Part shown: piece by piece, positions 45,006 to 55,298 of the stretch
Numbering within the stretch: position 1 is the first letter of the stretch
Layout: each line of letters begins with the position of its first letter
Assembly (NCBI GenBank): GCA_963781585.1
Contig: CAWAGQ010000010.1
Span: 64,001-128,000 of the forward strand
From: an uncultured Gemmatimonadaceae bacterium
GTDB lineage: Bacteria > Gemmatimonadota > Gemmatimonadetes > Gemmatimonadales > Gemmatimonadaceae
Length of the DNA: 64,000 nucleotides
Direction: 5' to 3'
Notes under the pieces: model-generated
The model's database searches: none
Told to the model about the DNA's origin: nothing
Seen by the model: the letters and a program-made list of their open reading frames with translations, nothing else
Made by a program: the position numbers and the translations under genes

Positions 45006-46046
45006 CTACAGCATCCCCCCCCGTCGCAGAAACCAGAGCAGCCCGATGCCTAACGCGAGCTGCACCACCAGCATGATCTCGAATCCGATCGGGTTCTGGG
45101 ACAGCGGAATGCGGGTGAAGTTCATCCCCCACATGCCGCTCACGACCACGAACGGGACCGACAGCGTTGCCACCACGGTCAGTCCCTTGGTCACCAGCCC
45201 CAGCCGGTTCGACACCTGGGACAGATAGCTCTCGAGCGTGCTGCTGAGGAGTTCGCGAAAGGTGTCGAGCGAGTCGTTGATCCTCAGCACATGATCGTAG
45301 ATGTCGCGAAAATAGAGCTGGACGTCCTGGGTGAGGTACTGTGACGGCCGATTGGCGAGCACGTTGAAAATCTCTCGCTCCGGCGCAAGGTACCGGCGCA
45401 ACGACAACACCATGCGCTTCACCGAGAAGATATCGCGGAGCGCCGCCTCGTCGAAGCTCCGGAACACGCGATCCTCCAGGCTGTCGGTGAACTCATCGAG
45501 CCGGTCCAGAATCGGGAAGTACGCGTCCACCGCGTCGTCCATGACCTGATGGGCGAGCCGGGCGTGGCCGCGCGCCAGCACGTCCGGATTGCGCGTTGCC
45601 AGGTCCACCACCGTCTCGACATGGGGGCTGCGGCCGCTGTGCACGGTGACCAGGTAGTTGGCACCAAGGAAGAAGTAGAGGTTGCGCGTCTCGAGGTCGT
45701 AGGGATCGTCGGTCGTCGTGTCGAGACTCAATACGCGCAGGATGATGAACAGGTAGCCATCGTACTCCTCCACCTTGGCGCGGCTGTTCGGGTGCAGCAC
45801 GTCCTCGATGGCCAGCGGATGGAACCCGAACACCTTTTCGAGCAACGCGCCCTGTTGTCGTACCGAACTGTCGATGTCCACCCAGAGCTTGCCCGCGCCG
45901 CCTCGCACGCACTCCATCAGGTCCTTGAGCGAGAGATCGCGGGCCAGCGTGCCCTCGCCGCCGGCGGGGATGAAGAACGAGCGCGGCAGCTTAATCGCTG
46001 CCGCGGGCGGCGAGGCGCCCGGTTCCGGAGGAGTCGGCGTGGTCAC
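45006..46046 (-). CDS. corA: CorA-family Mg2+/Co2+ transporter
   Basis: HPLAIED, YFRDIYDH, GMN signature (WGMNF) and two C-terminal TMs. Confidence 0.9.
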   Translation of the reverse strand: MTTPTPPEPGASPPAAAIKLPRSFFIPAGGEGTLARDLSLKDLMECVRGGAGKLWVDIDSSVRQQGALLEKVFGFHPLAIEDVLHPNSRAKVEEYDGYLFIILRVLSLDTTTDDPYDLETRNLYFFLGANYLVTVHSGRSPHVETVVDLATRNPDVLARGHARLAHQVMDDAVDAYFPILDRLDEFTDSLEDRVFRSFDEAALRDIFSVKRMVLSLRRYLAPEREIFNVLANRPSQYLTQDVQLYFRDIYDHVLRINDSLDTFRELLSSTLESYLSQVSNRLGLVTKGLTVVATLSVPFVVVSGMWGMNFTRIPLSQNPIGFEIMLVVQLALGIGLLWFLRRGGML

Positions 46047-46162
46047 GAATCAGCGCATTGGAGTGCGTCCGCCATCTGCCCATTCTCCTCCTGTCGGATG
46101 CTTGACGTCGACGTCGCGGCTCGCGGACCCGCCGCCGCCGAGTGCGACGAACCCGATCCAGA

Positions 46163-47378
46163 CTAGAATCGAAACGCCACCTTCACGCTCCGCTCCGACC
46201 CCTTGGCGCGCGCCGTCTTCGAGCGCGCGCCGGTGGTCGGCGAGCGGGAAGGTGTGCGTGACCAGCGACCCGACCGGGGCACGGCCACTCGCGATGAGAT
46301 CCGCCGCTTCGACGAAGGCATGTCCGGCCGCACCACCGTGTCCCTGTACACCATAGGCGAGCGTACCGCGAATCGTCAGTTCCTTCAACCACAACGGCGT
46401 CCAGTCGAGCCCCCGGAGCGTGCTGGCGTTTCCGATCAGTACGATCGTGCCGCCGGCGCGCGTGCAGCGCAATGCATCCTCCATCGCGCGCACGCTGCTG
46501 ACGCACACATACGTGGCATCGAATCCGCCCACCCCGGCGGGCCGTCCGATGATTGCCGGGAGGAGGCGCGTACCGGCCAGCTCGGCCAGCGCGCCCAGGT
46601 AGTCCCCGCGTGCGACGAACGTACGATGCGCGCCGAGGCGCGAGGCCAGTTCGGCCTGGAAGGGATGGCGAGCCACCACCGTCACCTCGGCGCGAGCGAG
46701 CTGCGCCAGAGCGTACGTGAGCAGGAGGCCCATCGAGCCAGCCCCGATCACCGCTACGCGGGACGGGTCGTCGGTGCCGGCGGCCCGCATCGCGTGGATA
46801 CAGCAGGCCAGCGGTTCGACCAGGACCGCTTCTTCATCGCTGATGCTGTCGGGCACCGGTACCAGCTGCGACACGTGCGCCACGAACTCCTCGCCCCAGC
46901 TTCCGCCAAGCGACCGCGTCGTACCGATGAACAGTCCCGGCGGCAGCACACCGTCCGTGAAGTGGATGCACCGCGAGTGCATTCCGGCAGCGCAGGCATC
47001 GCAGACGGGGCGGATGGCGCGCGGCTCGCAGCAGAGCAGGGGGTTTACGACGACCCGTTGGCCCTCGGCGGTCCCGCGGACGGCGCGACCGGTTTCCACG
47101 ATCGTTCCGACGTTCTCGTGCCCCAGTACGAAGGGGAACGACGAGAACGGTGACGACGACGGGCTGGCCTCGAGCGCGACGATGCCCAGGTCGCTCCCGC
47201 AGATGCCGCCAAGCCGGGTTCGAATTCGCACCCAGTCGTCCCCGGGCAGTGCCGGCGATTCCATCTCGGCATATCGGGTGCAGGCGTGCGGCCCGACCGT
47301 CAGGGCTGGCGAGAGACGCCCGGCAGCCAGGGTAACCAGGTAGGTGGGAATCGGCGCTGCAAAGCGGATCGCCTTCAC
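46163..47378 (-). CDS. Zinc-dependent MDR-family dehydrogenase/reductase (probable +1 frameshift near 46217; as read, the ORF runs to 46050)
   Basis: GICGSD, GHE, structural-Zn Cys cluster (CC..CDAC..C) and GAGSMG. GTG start overlaps the kinase stop (GTGA). The typical ending SVKVAFRF lies in another frame. Confidence 0.85.
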
Positions 47379-48313
47379 GGCCCGGCAACCGGCGACTTGC
47401 CCTGCACCGGGCCGGCGCCGTTCCCTTCGGGCACTACCACCCGGAGCGCCTGACGGAGACACCCCAGCAGCAACTCGGCTGATTGGGCGCGCCGATACTC
47501 GCCGTCGGTCTCGTAGGCCGGCGGCGCGGCGAACCGGAGCGAGAAGGTGCGGGATCGTTCGATGGAGACCTCGGGGTATCCGGCGTGCGTGCCGCGTGTC
47601 GCGGCCACGAATAACCTCAGGCGCTGCAGCGGGCGCGCGTCGAGAAACGAGACGGCGTCGAGCGCGCCGTCGGTGATCGACGCGTCCGGGGCGATCCGGA
47701 ATGAACCGCCGAAGTTGCGTGCGTTGGCCACCACCAGCATCAGGTGGGGCTTCGGACCGCGCCACGCCGGTGATCCGATATCGATGTCGGTGGCGCGATA
47801 GCGCGCGATCTGGCGGAGCGCGGAGTAGATGTAGAGCGCGTCCCCGCGCAGCCAGCCGATGCGGGTGACGTCTTCCAGGACCGCGACGTCGAGGCCGAAG
47901 CCAGCGATGTTGAGAAAGTAGCGATCCTCGATGGTGCCGACGTCCACCCGCCGGTCGGGGCCCTCGACGGCGAGGCGGGCGCTGCGGGCGACGTCGTGGG
48001 CCGGCGCCCCAGCGGTCTTCGCGAAGTCGTTCCCGGTCCCGCTGGCGATGAGCGCCAGTCGGCAGTCGGCGCCAGCGCGGAGCACCGCGTTGGCGACATT
48101 GCTCCAAGTGCCGTCGCCGCCGACCGCCACCAGCGTCGTGCAGCCCTCGCCGATCGCCCGGCGCGCCACGGCTTCTTCCCGGAGCGCCGGCGTGGTGACC
48201 CGCAGATCATCGACGCCTAAAGCGGCGAAAGCCTCGCGCACCCGTGGCAACGCCCGCGCCCCGCTGCCCCGGCCCGACGCCGGGTTCACGATGACGCAGA
48301 TCCGCTCCGGCAT
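47375..48313 (-). CDS. Diacylglycerol/sphingosine kinase-family lipid kinase
   Basis: IVNPASG, GGDGT, GTGNDFA, FGGSFRIAP and DGE motifs. Confidence 0.92.
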   Translation of the reverse strand: MPERICVIVNPASGRGSGARALPRVREAFAALGVDDLRVTTPALREEAVARRAIGEGCTTLVAVGGDGTWSNVANAVLRAGADCRLALIASGTGNDFAKTAGAPAHDVARSARLAVEGPDRRVDVGTIEDRYFLNIAGFGLDVAVLEDVTRIGWLRGDALYIYSALRQIARYRATDIDIGSPAWRGPKPHLMLVVANARNFGGSFRIAPDASITDGALDAVSFLDARPLQRLRLFVAATRGTHAGYPEVSIERSRTFSLRFAAPPAYETDGEYRRAQSAELLLGCLRQALRVVVPEGNGAGPVQGKSPVAGP

Positions 48314-49008
48314 CAGGCCGAGGCCGGGACCAGCGTCTCGAGGGGGTAAAACGTCTGCAGCCCGTCGCGCATCCAGAGTTCACGAAACGGTGTGGTGTTG
48401 AGGCCGTCGGGTTCGATGGCCGCGGTGAACCGGTGCCCGTGCAGCTCGATCGCGCCCCGCTCCTCCTCATTCTCGCTGAACGGCGCCGCCATGATGATGG
48501 TCGCCATGTACGCGCCGGAATCATCCCGCATGAACGACTGGTATCGGTGCTCGACGTTCTCCCAGCTGTAGTCGGTGATCCGCATGTCGAGGATCGGCGA
48601 CCCCTCGTGCGATGCCGAGATGCCGATCTGATGGTCGCCGCGGTCGAGGGCGAGATCGATGTCGTTCATGAAATGCGGGAGGTGCCACCGTTCGATCGCG
48701 TGTTCCCGCGAGGCGCTGGTAGTGGTGCCCAGGAGAAACGGGTAGAACGCCGCGCGGGGGAGGGGCGAGCCGCGCCCGACGCGGGGCGCCACGTGCACCG
48801 AGAGAATCAACTCGCCGTATTCTCCCACCGGCGAGTCGTGAAAGTCGAACGCCATCACCGAGAGCACGCTCTGTCCATGATGTGGTTCCACCGGATACAG
48901 AAACCGGGGGAGAATCTGCACGGCATTGGCGGTGGGGAACTCGAAAAAGCCGCCGATGGCGTGGCGGAAGTGGTACTGCACCACGCCGTTGTCCGTCCTG
49001 GTGCTCAC
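48313..49008 (-). CDS. Acetoacetate-decarboxylase-like fold protein (catalytic Lys apparently replaced)
   Basis: ILP..LYP and DSPVGEYGELILSV; the W-x-x-P-K motif reads ERWHLPH. Translationally coupled on both sides. Confidence 0.65.
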   Translation of the reverse strand: MSTRTDNGVVQYHFRHAIGGFFEFPTANAVQILPRFLYPVEPHHGQSVLSVMAFDFHDSPVGEYGELILSVHVAPRVGRGSPLPRAAFYPFLLGTTTSASREHAIERWHLPHFMNDIDLALDRGDHQIGISASHEGSPILDMRITDYSWENVEHRYQSFMRDDSGAYMATIIMAAPFSENEEERGAIELHGHRFTAAIEPDGLNTTPFRELWMRDGLQTFYPLETLVPASA

Positions 49009-50318
49009 AGGACGCCCTCGGCGCGCAGGACCTCGACCAGGATGGCGGCCCCTTCCTCGAGATCAGCCTCCGAGTGAGTGGCGGAGATCGAGATACGGAA
49101 GCGCGACTTGTGCTTCGCCACTGCCGGGTAGATGATCGGCTGCAGGTACAGGCCGGCGCGCTGCAGCGCCTGCGCGATGCAGAAGATCTTCCGGTCGTTG
49201 CGAATCATCACCGGGATAATCTGGGACGTGGACTCGCCCACGTCGACGCCGGCACTGGCGAGCAGGCGCCGCATGTACGACACGTTCGACCACAGCCGCT
49301 CGCGCAACGCGGGCTCGCGCTGCGCAATCCGCAGGGCCTCGAGTACACCGGCCGTGACCGCCGGCGACAGGGCGCACGAAAAGACGCGCGAGCGCGCGAA
49401 ACCCATCAGGTAGTTGTACAGACTGCGGGATCCGGCGATGCATCCCCCCATGCCGCCGAGCGCCTTGGAGAACGTGCCGATGTGGATGTCGATCTCATCC
49501 TCGAGGCCGAAGTGCTCCACGACCCCGCGCCCGTTGGCGCCGTAGACAAACGCCGAGTGCGCCTCGTCGATCATGACCCGTGCGCCGTGACGCCGGGCCA
49601 CTTCGACGATCTCGGGCAGGCGCGCCACATCGCCGTCCATGGAGTAGACCCCCTCCACGATGACCAGCCGCTTACCGCTGGTTCCCTTGAGCTTCCGGTT
49701 GAGCTCCTCGGGCTGGTTGTGCCGGAAGAACCGCGCATTCGCCTTGGACAGAATCGCGCCATCCACGATGCTGGCGTGTACGTTCTGATCCATGATGATG
49801 TGGTCTCCGGGACGCATCAGCGCCGCGATCAGCCCGACGTTGGTGCTGTAGCCGGTGGGGAAGATCATCACCGCTTCCTTGCGCTTGAACCGGGCGAGTT
49901 CCTGCTCGAGCGCCAGGTGAATGTCCATGGTCCCGCTCAGGATCGGCGACCCGGCCGCTCCCAGGCCATACTGGTCCAGGGCACCCTTCGCGGCCGCAAT
50001 CACTTCCGGACGGTAGGACAGGCCGAGGTAGTTGTAGGACGCGAGATTCAGCAGGCGGAGGCGCTGGTGGCGCAGTTGCTCCTCCAGCTGGATGCTCGGC
50101 GCCGGCGGCGTTGACATCGGCTGGGAGAACAGATAGTAGCCGTTGCCTCGCGCGTGACCGTACCACCACTCATCGTATGGATCGAAGATCGCGAAAAGAT
50201 CTTCGCTGGATGAGTAGTAGAAATTGCTGTAGTCGTAGTCGGCAAGGGCGCCGTTCGACTTCGTGGTCGCATATCGTTCCGCCTCGTCTGTTTTCAGCGG
50301 CCCGACTCGTGTGGCCAT
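49005..50318 (-). CDS. PLP-dependent alpha-oxoamine synthase, serine palmitoyltransferase-like
   Basis: ASYNYLGL, TGYSTN, HASIVDG, EGVYSMDGD, DEAHS and PLP-Lys GTFSKALG; GGGAGA RBS; lipid-gene context. Confidence 0.8.
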   Translation of the reverse strand: MATRVGPLKTDEAERYATTKSNGALADYDYSNFYYSSSEDLFAIFDPYDEWWYGHARGNGYYLFSQPMSTPPAPSIQLEEQLRHQRLRLLNLASYNYLGLSYRPEVIAAAKGALDQYGLGAAGSPILSGTMDIHLALEQELARFKRKEAVMIFPTGYSTNVGLIAALMRPGDHIIMDQNVHASIVDGAILSKANARFFRHNQPEELNRKLKGTSGKRLVIVEGVYSMDGDVARLPEIVEVARRHGARVMIDEAHSAFVYGANGRGVVEHFGLEDEIDIHIGTFSKALGGMGGCIAGSRSLYNYLMGFARSRVFSCALSPAVTAGVLEALRIAQREPALRERLWSNVSYMRRLLASAGVDVGESTSQIIPVMIRNDRKIFCIAQALQRAGLYLQPIIYPAVAKHKSRFRISISATHSEADLEEGAAILVEVLRAEGVL

Positions 50319-50331
50319 GAGGAGTCTCCCT

Positions 50332-51213
50332 GTGAATTCTCGCTACTCGACTGGCATCGGCTCGACCGCAGCCCCCCCGACTCCGGGGTGGCTCAGTGCG
50401 TTCCGTGCCGTTCGCGGCGCGGTATTCCTGCTCGTCTTCTTCCTGTATCTGCTGGTCGGACTTGGACTGCCGCAGCGTGTGATCGTGTTCCCATTCCTCT
50501 GGATTTTTCCGAAACGCCGGGACCGGGTACTGGGACCCTGGATTCGGGCCCATGCGCGCATTACCCGCGCCCTGGCGCGATTCCCGGGCGGCGTACGTCT
50601 GGACATCCGGGGTACGTTGCCGCCCGAGTGCGGGATCGCGGTCATGAACCACCAGTCGGTGCTGGACGCCATGATCGCGCTGTGCGTGGCACGCGGTCCG
50701 CTTCCGTTGATCCCGGTGCGGACGCGATATCGGTGGGGAATGCCCGGCATTTCGCCTTTCCTGCGGGCGGCGCGATTCCCGTTCATCAGGCAGCAGCGCG
50801 CCACCGCCGACGCGGACCTGGCGGCCATCGAGGCCGAAGCCGAACGCGCCGCGCGTGGAGAGGCGATGATCTTCATTTTTCCGGAGGGCCACCGCACCCG
50901 GACCGGCGACATCGGGCCGTTCATGCCACGCGGGCTCCGGAGCTCGCTGAGGCGCGTCCACCGCCCCGTGTACTGCGTGGTCGGCGACGGAATGTGGCGC
51001 GTGCGGACGCTGGCCGATGTGTTCACGAAGCTCGCCGGAACGCGCGTCACGGTCCGGATCATCGGACCGTTCACCGCGCCGCAGGATGAGCAGGACATTC
51101 CCGGTTTCATCGCGTCGCTCCGGGACCGGATGGTGGCGACGCTGCGGGAATCGCGCGACAGGCCCACTTCGTCGACGCAAACAGATGCGGACTGGCAGCA
51201 GGCCGCCGGCTGA
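50332..51213 (+). CDS. PlsC/LPLAT-family acyltransferase
   Basis: NHQSVLD (HX4D) and FPEGHRT motifs; GAGGAG RBS before GTG 50332. Start is uncertain. Confidence 0.85.
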   Translation: MNSRYSTGIGSTAAPPTPGWLSAFRAVRGAVFLLVFFLYLLVGLGLPQRVIVFPFLWIFPKRRDRVLGPWIRAHARITRALARFPGGVRLDIRGTLPPECGIAVMNHQSVLDAMIALCVARGPLPLIPVRTRYRWGMPGISPFLRAARFPFIRQQRATADADLAAIEAEAERAARGEAMIFIFPEGHRTRTGDIGPFMPRGLRSSLRRVHRPVYCVVGDGMWRVRTLADVFTKLAGTRVTVRIIGPFTAPQDEQDIPGFIASLRDRMVATLRESRDRPTSSTQTDADWQQAAG

Positions 51214-52183
51214 CGGGGCTGTGCGTGCGGCGCTGGCGCTGGGCCTCGATCGCCCCCCGGGAGCCGAGGCATGCGCGCTGGCTGCGCAGCTGGCGTCGGC
51301 CTTCGGAGACGCGACCATGGCAGTGGTACACTACGGGTCGCGGGCCCAAGGGCGGCCCACGCGCACCGAGAGTGCCTATGACTTCTTCGTCATCGTGCGC
51401 GAGTACGATTCGGCCTACCGGACGCTCCACCGCACCGCCGGCACCCACTACCGTCCTGGAGTCGCCGCTGCCCTGGCACGCGTGCTCCCGCCAAACGTGA
51501 TCTCGGTCGCCGACCGAAGCGGCGCCGGGCGGCGCGCCAAGTGCGCCGTGTTGTCCGAGCAGGACTTCCGCCGAGCCAGCTCCGAGCGTGCACGTGACCA
51601 TTTCGTGCGCGGCCGTCTCATGCAATACCTGACGCTGGCCTGGAGCCGCGATCCCGGAACCGCGCGCCTGGTGGCCGACGCCGTCGTCGCGGCGCGCGCC
51701 GGCACGTACGAATGGGTGCGTGCCTTTCTCCCCGAGCGCTTCGACGTCGATGAGTACTGTCGCACGCTCCTCGACGTTTCGTTCGCGCGCGAAATCCGCC
51801 CCGAGCCCCGGTCTCACGTCGTCGCGCTGTACGAGGCGCAGCGTGAGCTGATGCTCGCCATCTACGGACCGTGGCTCGAGCACCTCGCCCAGGGCGATCT
51901 CCTCGTCCGTGAAGGCGAGACGTATCGACACCGTGCGCCGCCTGACGCGCTCGACAGGGCGCGCATCCGTTTCTACTTTCGAAGCAGCAAAGCGCGCGCG
52001 ACGCTTCGCCTCCTCAAGCATGTGGTGTTGTACGAGGGATGGCTCGACTACATCCTCCATAAGGTTTCGCGCAGCACCGGGGAGCGAATCGAAGTGACCG
52101 AACGCGAGCGCCGCTGGCCGCTGATCTTCATGTGGCCGAAAATCCTTCGCTATCTGCGCTCCCGGCCGCAACGCCGCGACTGA
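51185..52183 (+). CDS. Tam41/Mmp37-like nucleotidyltransferase (putative CDP-lipid synthase)
   Basis: YGS...AYDFFVIV nucleotidyltransferase signature, LPPNV and VSFAREIRPE; lies between the acyltransferase and the CDP-alcohol transferase. Alternative start 51221. Confidence 0.65.
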   Translation: MRTGSRPPADGAVRAALALGLDRPPGAEACALAAQLASAFGDATMAVVHYGSRAQGRPTRTESAYDFFVIVREYDSAYRTLHRTAGTHYRPGVAAALARVLPPNVISVADRSGAGRRAKCAVLSEQDFRRASSERARDHFVRGRLMQYLTLAWSRDPGTARLVADAVVAARAGTYEWVRAFLPERFDVDEYCRTLLDVSFAREIRPEPRSHVVALYEAQRELMLAIYGPWLEHLAQGDLLVREGETYRHRAPPDALDRARIRFYFRSSKARATLRLLKHVVLYEGWLDYILHKVSRSTGERIEVTERERRWPLIFMWPKILRYLRSRPQRRD

Positions 52184-52184
52184 G

Positions 52185-52940
52185 ATGAGTCCCGTCGAAA
52201 TCGCCGCCCTCGCGCTGGGCATCGCCGCGCTGGCCACAATGCCCGTCTTCGCGCTGCGCTCACGCGTGCGCTCGGTGGACGCCGACGTCGCGCGACGACC
52301 GACGACCATCTTCCTGGGCTTGTGGATACGCGACTGGTTCATGTGGATCCTGTCACCGATTGAGCGTCGTCTGGTGCACGCGCGCGTGTCGCCAGACGTC
52401 TTCAACTACCTCGGAGTCCTCTTCGGCGCCGCCGCCGGAATCGCCTTCGCGGTCCGGGAGCCATCTCTGGCCGCATGGATGATAGTGCTTGGCGGCGTTT
52501 CCGACATCCTCGACGGCAGAATTGCCAGAGCCCTCGGCGTGGCCTCCGAGTACGGCGCCTTCGTGGACTCGACGTTCGACAGATTCGCCGAGACCTTCAC
52601 GTTTCTCGGCGTGGCCTGGTTCCTGGCCCGCGTGCCATGGGGCGCGGTGGCCACCGCCTTCGCCCTCGGCGGCTCGCTGCTGGTCAGTTTTGCGCGCGCC
52701 CGCGGCGAAGCGCACGGAGTGAAGTTCACAGGCGGAATCATGCAGCGCGCCGAACGACTCGTCCTGCTCGCTCTTGCCGCATTCCTCGATCCCATGGTTA
52801 CCTCCCGCGCCGGGTGGCGGAGCGGCAGCGTGCTCGCCGCCACCGTAGGCCTGATCGGCCTCGGGGCGCTGGCAACCGCCGTGTACCGAACAGCGCGTAC
52901 TGCCCGCGAACTCTACCGTCAAGACTCACGGGTTCGGTAG
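52185..52940 (+). CDS. CDP-alcohol phosphatidyltransferase family protein
   Basis: Complete signature DILDGRIAR..G..S.YGAFVDSTFD; SFARARGE and QRAER. Confidence 0.93.
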   Translation: MSPVEIAALALGIAALATMPVFALRSRVRSVDADVARRPTTIFLGLWIRDWFMWILSPIERRLVHARVSPDVFNYLGVLFGAAAGIAFAVREPSLAAWMIVLGGVSDILDGRIARALGVASEYGAFVDSTFDRFAETFTFLGVAWFLARVPWGAVATAFALGGSLLVSFARARGEAHGVKFTGGIMQRAERLVLLALAAFLDPMVTSRAGWRSGSVLAATVGLIGLGALATAVYRTARTARELYRQDSRVR

Positions 52941-53152
52941 GTTCGGAGCCGCGCCAACGCACGCTGGCACGCCCCGTCCGCAGGGCAGCCGGCAGAATCG
53001 TCGCCTCATCCCGTCCCGCACGCAAGACCGGGAGCCTTCCGACCGCCACGTTCCCTCAGGTAATCTCTGACAGCCTTGGGGGCGTCATCCCGACTTTACG
53101 AGTCGGCATTCGTCCCGATAGGTTCGCGCCCAACGCCCCACCAGACCGCGAG

Positions 53153-53872
53153 TTGACCCCGCCCTCCGCATCGGAAGTCCAGGAAGCCGTTCGCCTCCAC
53201 CGCATCGCCCGCCGGTTCGGCACACGATGGGCGCTGCGAGGCATTTCGATGAGCGTGGCTCCCGGCGAGGTGGTGGGGGTGATGGGGCACAACGGCAGTG
53301 GCAAGAGCACCCTGCTACGGGTGGTCTCAACGGTGCTGAAACCGAACGCAGGCGAGGGGTGGATCTACGGCCATCACCTGGTGCGGGAAGCCATGCAGGT
53401 CCGCCACCTCATCGGCTTTCTGGCGCACTCGCCGGGCCTCTACGACGATCTCAGCGCGCGGGAGAACCTGAGCTTCGCTGCCGCGATGCTGGATGTGGAC
53501 GCGGGACCGATCGACGCGACGCTGGAGCGGGTCGGCCTGTCGCGTGAGCGCGACGAGCGTGTGCGCGGGTATTCGGCCGGAATGCAGCGGCGGCTCGCGC
53601 TGGCGCGAGTCCTGCTCGGTCAGCCACGCCTGCTGCTGCTCGATGAACCATACAACAACTTCGACGCGCAGGGCATCGCGCTGGTGAACGAGGTGATACT
53701 CGAGACGCGTGATCGTGGGGGCGCGGCGCTGGTGGTGCTGCACGACCGTCGCCAGGGCGAAGTGGTGCTGGATCGGGTGATCGAGCTGACCAGGGGTGTG
53801 GTGTCCGGAGGCGAGGACCGGGAGGCGCCCGCTGTGCCGCGTCCCGCCGTCGTCGCGCAGGGAGCTCGTTAG
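53153..53872 (+). CDS. ccmA: Heme ABC exporter ATP-binding protein CcmA
   Basis: GHNGSGKST, YSAGMQRR and LLLLDEP; first gene of the ccm run. TTG start is uncertain. Confidence 0.85.
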   Translation: MTPPSASEVQEAVRLHRIARRFGTRWALRGISMSVAPGEVVGVMGHNGSGKSTLLRVVSTVLKPNAGEGWIYGHHLVREAMQVRHLIGFLAHSPGLYDDLSARENLSFAAAMLDVDAGPIDATLERVGLSRERDERVRGYSAGMQRRLALARVLLGQPRLLLLDEPYNNFDAQGIALVNEVILETRDRGGAALVVLHDRRQGEVVLDRVIELTRGVVSGGEDREAPAVPRPAVVAQGAR

Positions 53873-54559
53873 GTGGCGGTCCCGGCTGATCTGCGCCGCG
53901 TGCGCGCAATCATCTGGAAGGACCTCACCTCCGAGCGCCGGTCGAAGGCCGGCTTCAACGCCGTCACGTTTCTCGGGGTCCTGATCCTGCTCCTGTTCGG
54001 CTTCGCGCTGGGTCCCGACGCCGAGGCGCTGCGGGAGGCGGCGGCCGGCGCGCTCTGGCTCGCCATCCTGTTCGCCGGCGTCCTGGCGTTCAATCGCTCC
54101 TATCAGCTCGAGCTGGATGGAGGCGCACTGGAGCCGTTGCTCCTCTACCCGGCGCCACGATGGACCATCTTCGTCGGCAAGGTCGTCGCCAATCTCCTGT
54201 TCGTGCTACTCGTGGAGCTCATCGTGGTGCCCGTGGCCGCGATTCTCTTTCACGTCAGCGTATCGGGAGCGTGGCTCGCCCAAGCCGGGGTGTTGCTGCT
54301 CGGAAGCGTCGGGTTCGTGTCGCTCGGAACGTTCTACGCCGCAATGGCCAGCCGAAGCCGCGCCCGCGAAGTGCTCCTGCCGTTGCTGTTGTTCCCGATG
54401 CTGGTGCCCGTATTGCTGGCGGCGGCGGAGGCCTCGAAGGCCATGCTCTCGGGCGATCCCATGAACGAGGCCGGGGCCTGGATACGACTTCTGGCGGCAT
54501 TTGACGTAATCTTCGTGGTGGCATCGGTCTTTGCCTTCGATTCCGTGATCGAGGTCTGA
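53873..54559 (+). CDS. ccmB: Heme exporter permease CcmB
   Basis: KDLTSERR, ELDGGALEPLLL and REVLLPLLLFP. Confidence 0.9.
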   Translation: MAVPADLRRVRAIIWKDLTSERRSKAGFNAVTFLGVLILLLFGFALGPDAEALREAAAGALWLAILFAGVLAFNRSYQLELDGGALEPLLLYPAPRWTIFVGKVVANLLFVLLVELIVVPVAAILFHVSVSGAWLAQAGVLLLGSVGFVSLGTFYAAMASRSRAREVLLPLLLFPMLVPVLLAAAEASKAMLSGDPMNEAGAWIRLLAAFDVIFVVASVFAFDSVIEV

Positions 54560-54560
54560 C

Positions 54561-55298
54561 ATGCGTGATGCGGTTCTTCTCCAGCCCGTGATTCCGGCGA
54601 CCACCTCGTCGCCGCGGCGCGGGACCTACGAGTGGCTCGGCGCCCTCGCGCTGGTGTCGTTGGTCGGCGCCCAACTCCTCGGCATCCTGACCAGTCCGCC
54701 GGACCGGGACATGGGCGACCTGCAGAAGATCATGTACGTCCACGTCCCGGCGGCGTGGAACGCCTTCATCGCCTACTTCGTCGTGGCGATCTCCAGCCTC
54801 CTCTATTTATGGAAGGGGCAAGAGCGACACGACCTGCTCGCTGCGTCAGCCGCCGAGGTCGGAGCGGTCCTGACGGGGCTCACGCTCGTGCTCGGTTCCA
54901 TCTGGGGCCGCCCCACCTGGGGCATCTGGTGGACCTGGGACGCGCGCCTGACGTCGACCGCCGTGCTGCTCCTGATCTTCGTGGGGTATCTGGCGCTGCG
55001 ATCGTTCGTGGATGACGCCGATCGCCGCGCTCAATGGAGCGCGGCGGTGGGCCTGCTTGGTGCGCTCAACGTCCCCATTGTGTACATGTCGGTACGCTGG
55101 TGGCGGACCATTCACCAGATTCAGTCGTCGCCGAACACGGTCGATCCCCGGTACGTGCGGGGTCTGCGGGCGAACGCGATCGCGTTCCTGCTGGTGCTCG
55201 TTTACTTCATATTGAAGCGGTATCGCGCCGCACAGCTCGAGCGGGCGGCGGAGCATCTGGCCGAGCGCGCGGCGCTTGGCCCGGAGGGGGCAGCATGA
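54561..55298 (+). CDS. ccmC: Heme exporter CcmC
   Basis: YVHVPAAW, WWD motif GSIWGRPTWGIWWTWDARLT and WWRTIHQ. Confidence 0.93.
   Translation: MRDAVLLQPVIPATTSSPRRGTYEWLGALALVSLVGAQLLGILTSPPDRDMGDLQKIMYVHVPAAWNAFIAYFVVAISSLLYLWKGQERHDLLAASAAEVGAVLTGLTLVLGSIWGRPTWGIWWTWDARLTSTAVLLLIFVGYLALRSFVDDADRRAQWSAAVGLLGALNVPIVYMSVRWWRTIHQIQSSPNTVDPRYVRGLRANAIAFLLVLVYFILKRYRAAQLERAAEHLAERAALGPEGAA

Follow-up and report, generated by a model that had tools for sequence, protein, structure and literature searches.

Sphingolipids have long been held to be rare in bacteria, and the known bacterial route, which depends on serine palmitoyltransferase (Spt), bCerS and CerR, arose separately from the eukaryotic one. 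In the Caulobacter-type cluster, Spt is accompanied by an acyl carrier protein (ACP), an acyl-ACP synthetase, CerR, bCerS, the ceramide kinase CC_1160/CpgB and proteins of the CDP-alcohol-transferase family; Caulobacter ceramides are reportedly the subject of a 2022 paper by Stankeviciute et al. The inositol-lipid cluster BT_1522-BT_1526 of Bacteroides comprises myo-inositol-1-phosphate synthase (MIPS), phosphatidylinositol phosphate (PIP) synthase, a phosphatase and an inositol-phosphoceramide synthase, and there inositol phosphate reaches ceramide via phosphatidylinositol (PI). The Kennedy-type route to PI employs PlsC, a CDP-diacylglycerol (CDP-DAG) synthase (Tam41 in mitochondria and some Firmicutes) and a PIP synthase of the mycobacterial PgsA1 type. 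Here we compare with these systems a cluster of seven predicted genes from an uncultured Gemmatimonadaceae bacterium (assembly GCA_963781585.1), located in a window of 64,000 nucleotides, i.e. the whole stretch that was analysed (contig CAWAGQ010000010.1, positions 64,001 to 128,000). One operon encodes an alpha-oxoamine synthase (AOS), a protein of the acetoacetate decarboxylase (ADC) fold, a lipid kinase and a Zn-dependent medium-chain dehydrogenase/reductase (MDR); the divergent one encodes a PlsC-type acyltransferase, a Tam41-like nucleotidyltransferase (NTase) and a CDP-alcohol transferase. In our judgement there is an even chance that the locus specifies a two-module pathway for a sphingolipid-like phospholipid.

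Like the Caulobacter-type cluster, and as in the proteobacterial loci L056 and L058, the window cluster groups an Spt-like AOS with a DAGK_cat kinase and a CDP-alcohol transferase. The preliminary description of this DNA had drawn the same parallel, and it is borne out: around Spt, the reference proteobacterial loci contain a fatty acyl-AMP ligase, an epimerase-family protein (CerR by position) and an ACP, and also DAGK_cat kinases, CDP-alcohol transferases, LptFG and an NTP transferase. In passages of PMC11324152, CC_1160 is identified as a ceramide kinase. Unlike the Caulobacter type, the window cluster lacks homologues of CerR and bCerS as well as an ACP and a fatty acyl-AMP ligase of its own. 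Instead, it contains the ADC-fold protein, PlsC and the Tam41-type enzyme, while a MobA-like NTP transferase occurs in one proteobacterial locus. Moreover, its AOS lies outside the known Spt clade, BLAST reveals no kinship between its kinase and transferase and those of the proteobacterial loci, and its head group is probably inositol phosphate, in contrast to phosphoglycerate. With the Bacteroides cluster it would have in common the link between inositol phosphate chemistry and sphingolipids, the PIPSynBT1523 model weakly matching the window transferase (94 vs 350); unlike that cluster, its layout suggests direct CDP activation of a sphingoid lipid.

The proposed pathway would proceed as follows. 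In module 1, the AOS would use an amino acid, which is probably serine, and a long-chain acyl thioester to form an alpha-amino-ketone long-chain base by condensation. The ADC-fold protein would act on this unstable product, as a partner subunit or as the enzyme of the next step, without Schiff-base chemistry, and the kinase would then phosphorylate the resulting long-chain base. Module 2 would parallel the conversion of lyso-phosphatidic acid (lyso-PA) to phosphatidic acid, CDP-DAG and PIP: PlsC would attach a second chain, the Tam41-type enzyme would form a CDP-activated lipid, and the CDP-alcohol transferase would move the lipid phosphate onto inositol phosphate. The Zn-MDR, as an accessory enzyme, may serve in 3-keto reduction or in modification of the head group. 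We infer the substrates, the order of steps and the head group from sequence.

There is also a bolder version, which we regard as unlikely, though not far-fetched. It would make the locus a third, independently evolved route to ceramide phospholipids, copying the Kennedy pathway step by step. The AOS and the lysine-less ADC-fold protein would constitute a two-component synthase, the DgkB-type kinase would act before acylation, PlsC would N-acylate the lyso-PA analogue, the Tam41-type enzyme would make CDP-ceramide, and the PIP-synthase-type enzyme would make inositol-phosphoceramide phosphate. Alternatively, within the same range of probability, the ADC-fold protein would be a new kind of ceramide synthase replacing bCerS. 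A literature search, with most subscription journals outside its coverage, returned nothing about the module or CDP-ceramide, nor about Gemmatimonas or Vicinamibacter sphingolipids.

The synthase, the ADC-fold protein and the conserved gene set

The AOS matches PF00155 (E 2.6e-55) and carries the motifs SYNYLGL at residue 94, HAS at 181 and DEAHS at 251, along with the TFSK lysine at 282; both the pyridoxal phosphate (PLP) lysine and the stacking histidine expected of a fold-type I AOS are in place. Its N-terminal extension of about 85 residues is aromatic-rich and conserved. The closest relative of solved structure is the SPT of S. multivorum (297.9 bits), followed by Sphingomonas SPTs and the Thermus AONS/KBL (about 243 bits), then by ALAS, KBL, CapB (194 bits) and BioF (188 bits); CqsA reaches 115 bits. 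All NCBIfam equivalog cut-offs were missed, including those of bioF (368.8 against 426.45), the BioF-Kbl subfamily (361 against 535) and Kbl (337.7 against 460).

The position of the AOS was examined in an IQ-TREE phylogeny of 36 rows and 394 columns, with references labelled by curated models or record annotation. These references were five alpha-type and three beta-type proteobacterial Spt and a CFB-type Spt of Prevotella scoring above its cut-off; BioF of E. coli and Alicyclobacillus; HemA of Roseobacter; four unassigned plasmid AOS; and Kbl of E. coli, of Bacillus, of five metagenome-assembled genomes (MAGs) and of the host genome itself. Within this set, the clade of the target AOS (11 sequences) received support of 100/100. 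It was placed outside Kbl (97/92), BioF and HemA and within a 99/92 super-clade containing all Spt types. When the target was held together with Kbl, the cost was 27.8 log-likelihood units (lnL) and the arrangement was rejected (approximately unbiased (AU) test, p 0.0115); when target and Spt were held as one clade, it was 5.1 lnL and the arrangement was not rejected (p 0.148). The distinction from BioF and Kbl, asserted in the preliminary description, is therefore upheld. Column by column, the target AOS has GTFSK in common with the Spt types. As for SYNYLGL, which had been taken as a pointer to Spt, the motif is indeed present, but YNY is no general Spt signature: it is common to the target AOS and alpha-type Spt only, and the beta and CFB types resemble Kbl here in reading NNY or NCY.

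These results bear on the explanation that the AOS is merely the BioF or Kbl of the cell and the MDR its Tdh, situated by chance near phospholipid genes, which we consider extremely improbable. BioF does give the top NCBIfam score, and the MDR is weakly Tdh-like; as in the kbl-tdh pair of E. coli, the AOS comes with a Zn-MDR for which an alpha-amino-beta-keto or beta-hydroxy motif is a conceivable target. Against this, no equivalog cut-off was reached and grouping with Kbl was rejected. What sets the window genes apart from the E. coli pair is that the AOS is no Kbl and that the MDR resembles polyol dehydrogenases more closely and lacks conservation with the AOS. The host genome has just one further AOS, a Kbl on contig C3 that scores above the NF005394 cut-off and adjoins a Tdh orthologue (43% identical), and a search with E. 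coli BioB found no BioB. Given the separate tdh-kbl pair and the failure to find BioB, housekeeping roles for the window AOS are unlikely. No bio or tdh genes adjoin it, as had been stated at the outset. In two phyla, moreover, its linkage to the ADC-fold gene and the kinase is strict, and it is present in just 25 of the 251 sampled Gemmatimonadota genomes.

The ADC-fold protein itself gave no Pfam match, and many of the 120 homologues listed for it carry PF06314. Its AF2 model (pLDDT 94.1) was matched by Foldseek solely to structures of the ADC superfamily, namely ADC, MppR and Sbi00515 (E about 1e-10, TM 0.58-0.67), and a protein-atlas search returned ADC clusters only. The predicted double-barrel fold is that of ADC, MppR, Sbi00515 and Swit_4259. 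In contrast to that superfamily, the family has no conserved lysine: the window's protein contains no lysine at all, and no alignment column reaches 50% Lys among the 120 listed homologues, in which invariant His, Glu, Asp and Arg positions are found. Without a catalytic lysine, Schiff-base catalysis is excluded. The preliminary description had left this protein, the sole universal partner of the AOS, without a role. It could serve as a partner subunit, take charge of the unstable amino ketone or be an acyltransferase of a new kind. As for the first, complex prediction for the AOS and the ADC-fold protein gave a score of 0.33 (best control 0.00), with the runs concurring in at least 75% of contacts and partner pLDDT of at least 87; the mark was passed by 116 of 157 solved complexes and by 2 of 215 mismatched pairs, and 18 of the 157 solved complexes and both passing mismatches lie at 0.60 or under. 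The modelling thus lends weak support to a complex between the two. We know of no ADC-superfamily member that partners an AOS, and a literature search pairing acetoacetate decarboxylase with serine palmitoyltransferase returned nothing relevant.

Fusions of the ADC-fold protein were considered and dismissed. There were seven longer matches, and in the six that were compared, gene pieces are missing and the parts are arranged like chimeric gene calls. P0392-P0396 are public gene calls in which fragments of all three genes of module 1 (AOS, ADC-fold and kinase) are run together, and P0398 combines the last two only.

Conservation of the cluster was followed in a synteny scan of one genome per species, which yielded 44 loci, 35 of them with an AOS of 70-80% identity. 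These 35 close loci belong to MAGs of Gemmatimonadota and Acidobacteriota (Vicinamibacterales-type), except for three labelled Acidimicrobiia and one labelled Lysobacteraceae. The ADC-fold gene follows the AOS in all 35 and is followed by the kinase in 34, the sole miss lying at a contig edge; this arrangement of AOS, ADC-fold gene and kinase is far beyond chance. The divergent trio of PlsC, Tam41-like and CDP-alcohol transferase genes is present in 23 of the 35, absent within the 4-10 kb flank in eight and not judgeable in four. The four loci labelled Lysobacteraceae or Acidimicrobiia (L007, L027, L033 and L034) have clusters of 76-77% identity, and their labels are likely due to binning error or recent transfer.

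Co-occurrence was then assessed in an evenly drawn sample of 251 Gemmatimonadota genomes, the window's own included. The ADC-fold gene and the AOS orthologue were found in an identical set of 25 genomes and were adjacent in every one of them. These genomes fall into two families, f1 (8/52, plus the window's genome) and f7 (16/37), while none came from the largest family (0/113). A Tam41-like gene was detected in 27 of the 251 genomes, among them 23 of the 25 with the AOS. In these 23, the two modules lie at most 3 kb apart in 19, on different contigs in one and apart in three (G529, G418 and G422). Where they are apart, a second, diverged ADC-fold copy stands beside the Tam41 module (also G418:C23, G422:C7) and the AOS operon is elsewhere; in G529 (L072, L073), the trio diverges from this copy. 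These second copies argue for a role of the ADC-fold protein beyond serving the AOS. The f7 locus L071 contains the six other genes of the cluster and no MDR. A sample of 251 Acidobacteriota genomes yielded the ADC-fold gene in two, and in the second of these (G619) an AOS lies directly upstream. Six genes (AOS, ADC-fold, kinase, PlsC, Tam41-like and CDP-alcohol transferase) thus form a conserved set. Of the earlier expectation that seven genes are kept together, this six-gene part stands, across the 35 loci and the 251 genomes, but the MDR is accessory and the modules are separable.

The head-group module and genome-wide searches

Module 2 resembles the Kennedy-type PI route in its three enzyme families and in the logical order of their steps, with intact NTase and CDP-alcohol motifs and with MIPS in the genome. 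Its acyltransferase matches PF01553 (E 1.3e-12), the HX4D motif reading HQSVLD. The PlsC start is uncertain: homologues align from about residue 33-67 of the open reading frame (ORF), and the first ATG of that frame, a candidate start at 50317, falls in a CATG (50316-50319) that also contains the start codon of the AOS on the minus strand. Either PlsC starts further downstream, or the two operons share no intergenic promoter region.

The Tam41-like query itself gave no Pfam match and missed PF09139; a 14-sequence alignment of the family (A1) gave no PDB match, and three of its 14 members touch Pfam Tam41 weakly. The 92-sequence profile A3 matches the Tam41 structures 6ig2 (E 2.1e-11) and 7ecd (E 5e-8), and the five top Foldseek matches of the AF2 model (pLDDT 94.3) are all Tam41 (TMt 0.58-0.69). 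Residues G51, S52 and D66 of the NTase G-S...D motif are invariant in the 92 sequences. From profile and model, the protein is presumed to be a CTP:lipid-phosphate cytidylyltransferase. Unlike the enzyme of the Kennedy-type route, it has an additional, conserved and family-specific C-terminal region of about 100 residues. The family counts 1090 representatives at E<=0.001, of which P0297, P0350 and P0252 pass the Pfam Tam41 cut-off. Fusions of PlsC to the Tam41-like protein are seen in P0243, P0248, P0252 and P0266 and partially in P0251, and a fusion of the Tam41-like protein to a CDP-alcohol transferase in P0278. Other members are fused to a MobA-like NTP transferase (P0313) or a cytochrome P450 (P0255, P0262), which hints at further lipid-tailoring variants of the module.

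The CDP-alcohol transferase has the full D..DG..AR..G...D...D motif at residue 107. Its five best PDB matches are PI or PIP synthases, including 6h53, 5d92 and 6wm5, and it scores below the NCBIfam cut-offs of archaetidylinositol-phosphate synthase (127.1 against 180), PIP synthase (99.4 against 170) and PIPSynBT1523 (94.4 against 350). These similarities suggest an enzyme of the inositol-phosphate-transferring, PIP-synthase-like (PIPS-like) kind. In the host genome, a MIPS gene stands beside a second PIPS-like CDP-alcohol transferase (C4:949259-951447; L047:6259-8448), which scores 143 against NF045883, above the window's copy. Co-occurrence with MIPS was considered as support and set aside: MIPS is present in all 25 cluster genomes and also in 235 of the 251 sampled (the tally includes G362, G487 and G462, flagged unpublished), and is therefore not discriminating. 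Further unlike the Kennedy-type route, the window module is tied to an Spt-like operon and coexists with that second PIPS-like gene, and the Tam41-like gene coexists with intact CdsA in all five other cluster genomes that were compared. The Tam41-like enzyme is therefore extra in those five.

We also searched the host genome (5.7 Mb, 67% G+C, completeness 93.5%, contamination 7.2%) for the canonical sphingolipid genes. No NCBIfam model for bCerS or CerR came up among the neighbours of the reference Spt genes. A bCerS candidate defined by synteny therefore served as query (L055:14407-15555, 382 amino acids (aa)), identified only by a weak GNAT match and linkage to Spt. As a positive control, this query was found in 5/5 Spt-bearing proteobacteria, near Spt in three of them. 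No bCerS homologue was found with it in the host genome or in five other cluster genomes of the Acidobacteriota type, in agreement with the earlier statement that bCerS is not recognisable in the cluster. For CerR, nothing convincing was found: the CerR queries gave one weak, partial match to a generic epimerase-family protein (32-36% identity, C3:279926-280558), far from the cluster, which may nevertheless be a functional reductase. Queries with the kinases, transferases, ACP and NTP transferase of the proteobacterial clusters had no match in the host genome at E<=1e-4. According to passages of PMC11334938, many phyla have Spt-like proteins with neither bCerS nor CerR close by.

Points against the pathway and competing explanations

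A number of observations weigh against the proposed pathway, and they concern the AOS, the coherence of the two modules, and the kinase, acyltransferase and MDR. As for the AOS, it scores below the Spt cut-offs of NF047603, NF047599 and NF047600 (Spt-alpha 275.5 against 670, Spt-beta 334.2 against 500, Spt-CFB 361.1 against 640); its orthologues likewise fall below them, whereas the reference Spt sequences pass. In the tree, the known Spt types form their own 99/95 clade, which excludes the target AOS, and the row nearest to the target clade is an unassigned AOS from Persicobacter (Bacteroidota), joined at 88/92 and flagged as a long-branch join. Where Spt, Kbl and HemA have Arg, the target AOS has Pro (GSP vs GSR/VR), and its C-terminal loop is Kbl-like (YPAVAKH); the serine-contact positions were taken from passages of PMC10196870. 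With these two deviations, serine use and decarboxylation by the AOS are not assured. The description of the synthase as SPT-like consequently stands in part: the best solved relatives are SPTs and a joint clade with Spt is compatible with the data, but the protein lies outside the known Spt clade and below the cut-offs. The tree and the profile scores suggest an Spt-like member of a separate clade, beside rather than inside known Spt.

These features would leave room for a non-canonical product of the AOS, an explanation that we think improbable, albeit less so than a housekeeping role. The enzyme would use glycine, alanine, cysteate or a similar substrate, or release a 2-amino-3-keto acid, and the ADC-fold protein would decarboxylate or rearrange the product; the outcome would be another amino-lipid or a signalling alpha-amino or alpha-hydroxy ketone, modified by the kinase. 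Besides a clade distinct from all Spt types, the Pro and loop substitutions and a nearest outgroup that is uncharacterised and long-branched, it can be adduced that ADC-superfamily members act on keto acids (judging by PDB titles) and that the MDR is in the same superfamily as threonine dehydrogenase, the partner of Kbl. However, Schiff-base catalysis would require a lysine, which the ADC-fold protein lacks, and SPTs are the best solved relatives of the AOS, with CapB and CqsA scoring much lower. The AOS also has the GTFSK of the Spt types and the YNY found among them in the alpha type only, and serine would provide the free hydroxyl on which a lipid kinase of this family depends.

As for the coherence of the modules, the Tam41-like gene occurs without the AOS in G403, G462 (flagged unpublished and included in the count of Tam41-only genomes) and G519, and as a weak match in G502, while module 1 occurs without it in G360 and G390. 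In the host assembly, cdsA (C4:778841-779701) is split over three successive frames (1, 0, 1); if these breaks are real, the Tam41-like enzyme could be the sole, housekeeping CDP-DAG synthase of this organism. Such observations would fit two pathways sharing a promoter region, an explanation that merits a minor but appreciable share of belief, larger than that of a non-canonical AOS product. Module 2 would then be a glycerophospholipid route with a Tam41-type synthase, and module 1 would have an end product of its own, e.g. a phosphorylated long-chain base or ceramide phosphate, that does not feed module 2. This explanation also gains from L074, where Tam41-like and CDP-alcohol transferase genes stand alone, and from the fact that all known activities of the Tam41, PIP synthase and DgkB families concern glycerolipids. 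On the other hand, the modules lie side by side and diverge in 19 of the 23 genomes holding both and in 23 of the 35 close loci. Even where the modules are separated, the second ADC-fold copy kept by the Tam41 module ties the ADC-fold protein to both. The intact CdsA of the five other cluster genomes speaks against a housekeeping Tam41-type synthase there, and the second PIPS-like gene beside MIPS would make another plain PI route redundant.

As for the remaining enzymes of the proposed sphingolipid-like pathway, the kinase passes TIGR00147 (YegS/Rv2252/BmrU family; 128.9, cut-off 118.65) and has the GGDGT motif at residue 65. Its best PDB match is DgkB (93.5 bits), a diacylglycerol kinase, and it has no BLAST-level similarity to the kinases of proteobacterial Spt clusters. 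N-acylation by a member of the PlsC family is an assumption of the model. Finally, no reductase is conserved with the cluster. The MDR follows the kinase in 20 of the 35 close loci, and in those without it the next genes are unrelated and mostly convergent. An MDR orthologue (E<=1e-20) was found in none of four cluster-bearing MAGs lacking an adjacent MDR, and it is absent from L071, the single locus examined of the second Gemmatimonadota family (f7). The best PDB matches of the MDR are a ketose reductase and sorbitol and xylitol dehydrogenases. A conserved 3-keto reductase in the form of this MDR was therefore ruled out as a general feature of the cluster, and the gene is an accessory member.

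The MDR gene is, in addition, frameshifted in the window, near 46,200-46,240 in a GC repeat. The assembled ORF continues to 46050 with an unconserved tail, while the conserved C-terminus (about 18 final residues, ...SVKVAFRF) is encoded in a different frame, with its stop at 46163. This may be either an assembly indel or a real lesion. Of two earlier claims, the one that the MDR stands in place of CerR is not supported, given its patchy distribution, its polyol-dehydrogenase-like affinity and the frameshift, and the one that its ORF ends at 46050 needs correction, this limit being a product of the frameshift.

Gene positions, neighbouring genes and significance

All seven genes and their arrangement in two divergent operons were recovered as first described, by ORF listing and translation of the window, Pfam and NCBIfam models, profiles and AF2 models (Table 1). 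Five of the seven are identified directly by Pfam or NCBIfam (AOS, lipid kinase, Zn-MDR, PlsC and CDP-alcohol transferase). The stop/start overlap reported for every junction of the left operon was likewise found, as GTGA, TGATG and GTGA.

Table 1. Genes of the cluster, with positions in the 64-kb window
Feature	Position	Strand	Basis
Spt-like alpha-oxoamine synthase (AOS), 437 aa	49005..50318	-	PF00155
ADC-fold protein, 231 aa	48313..49008	-	PF06314 of homologues; AF2 and Foldseek
DgkB/YegS-family lipid kinase, 312 aa	47375..48313	-	DAGK_cat and YegS_C, TIGR00147
Zn-dependent MDR oxidoreductase	46163..47378 (GTG start at 47378)	-	ADH_N and ADH_zinc_N
PlsC-type acyltransferase ORF	50263..51213	+	PF01553, HX4D motif
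Tam41/Mmp37-type nucleotidyltransferase	51185..52183	+	Profile against PDB; AF2 and Foldseek
PIP-synthase-like CDP-alcohol phosphotransferase	52185..52940	+	PF01066

On the same strand as the left operon, the cluster is followed by a CorA magnesium transporter gene (45006-46046, minus strand; TIGR00383 198.1, cut-off 200.75), a gene that accompanies the cluster in none of the 44 loci of the synteny scan. Downstream of the CDP-alcohol transferase (52475-55298, plus strand), there are an ABC ATPase-like ORF and two membrane-protein ORFs, which by eye resemble the heme exporter CcmABC.

If the proposed pathway is correct, a further enzyme set for sphingolipid-like phospholipids would exist in Gemmatimonadota and in Acidobacteriota of the Vicinamibacterales type, both common soil groups. 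Surveys based on Spt, bCerS and CerR would then undercount sphingolipid producers, and environmental lipid biomarkers might be assignable to new sources. A new function of the ADC fold could emerge as well, and so could a bacterial Tam41-type enzyme beside CdsA whose substrate is possibly a lipid other than a glycerolipid. With the AOS and the ADC-fold protein so strictly paired, the cluster poses a two-protein question that is directly testable.

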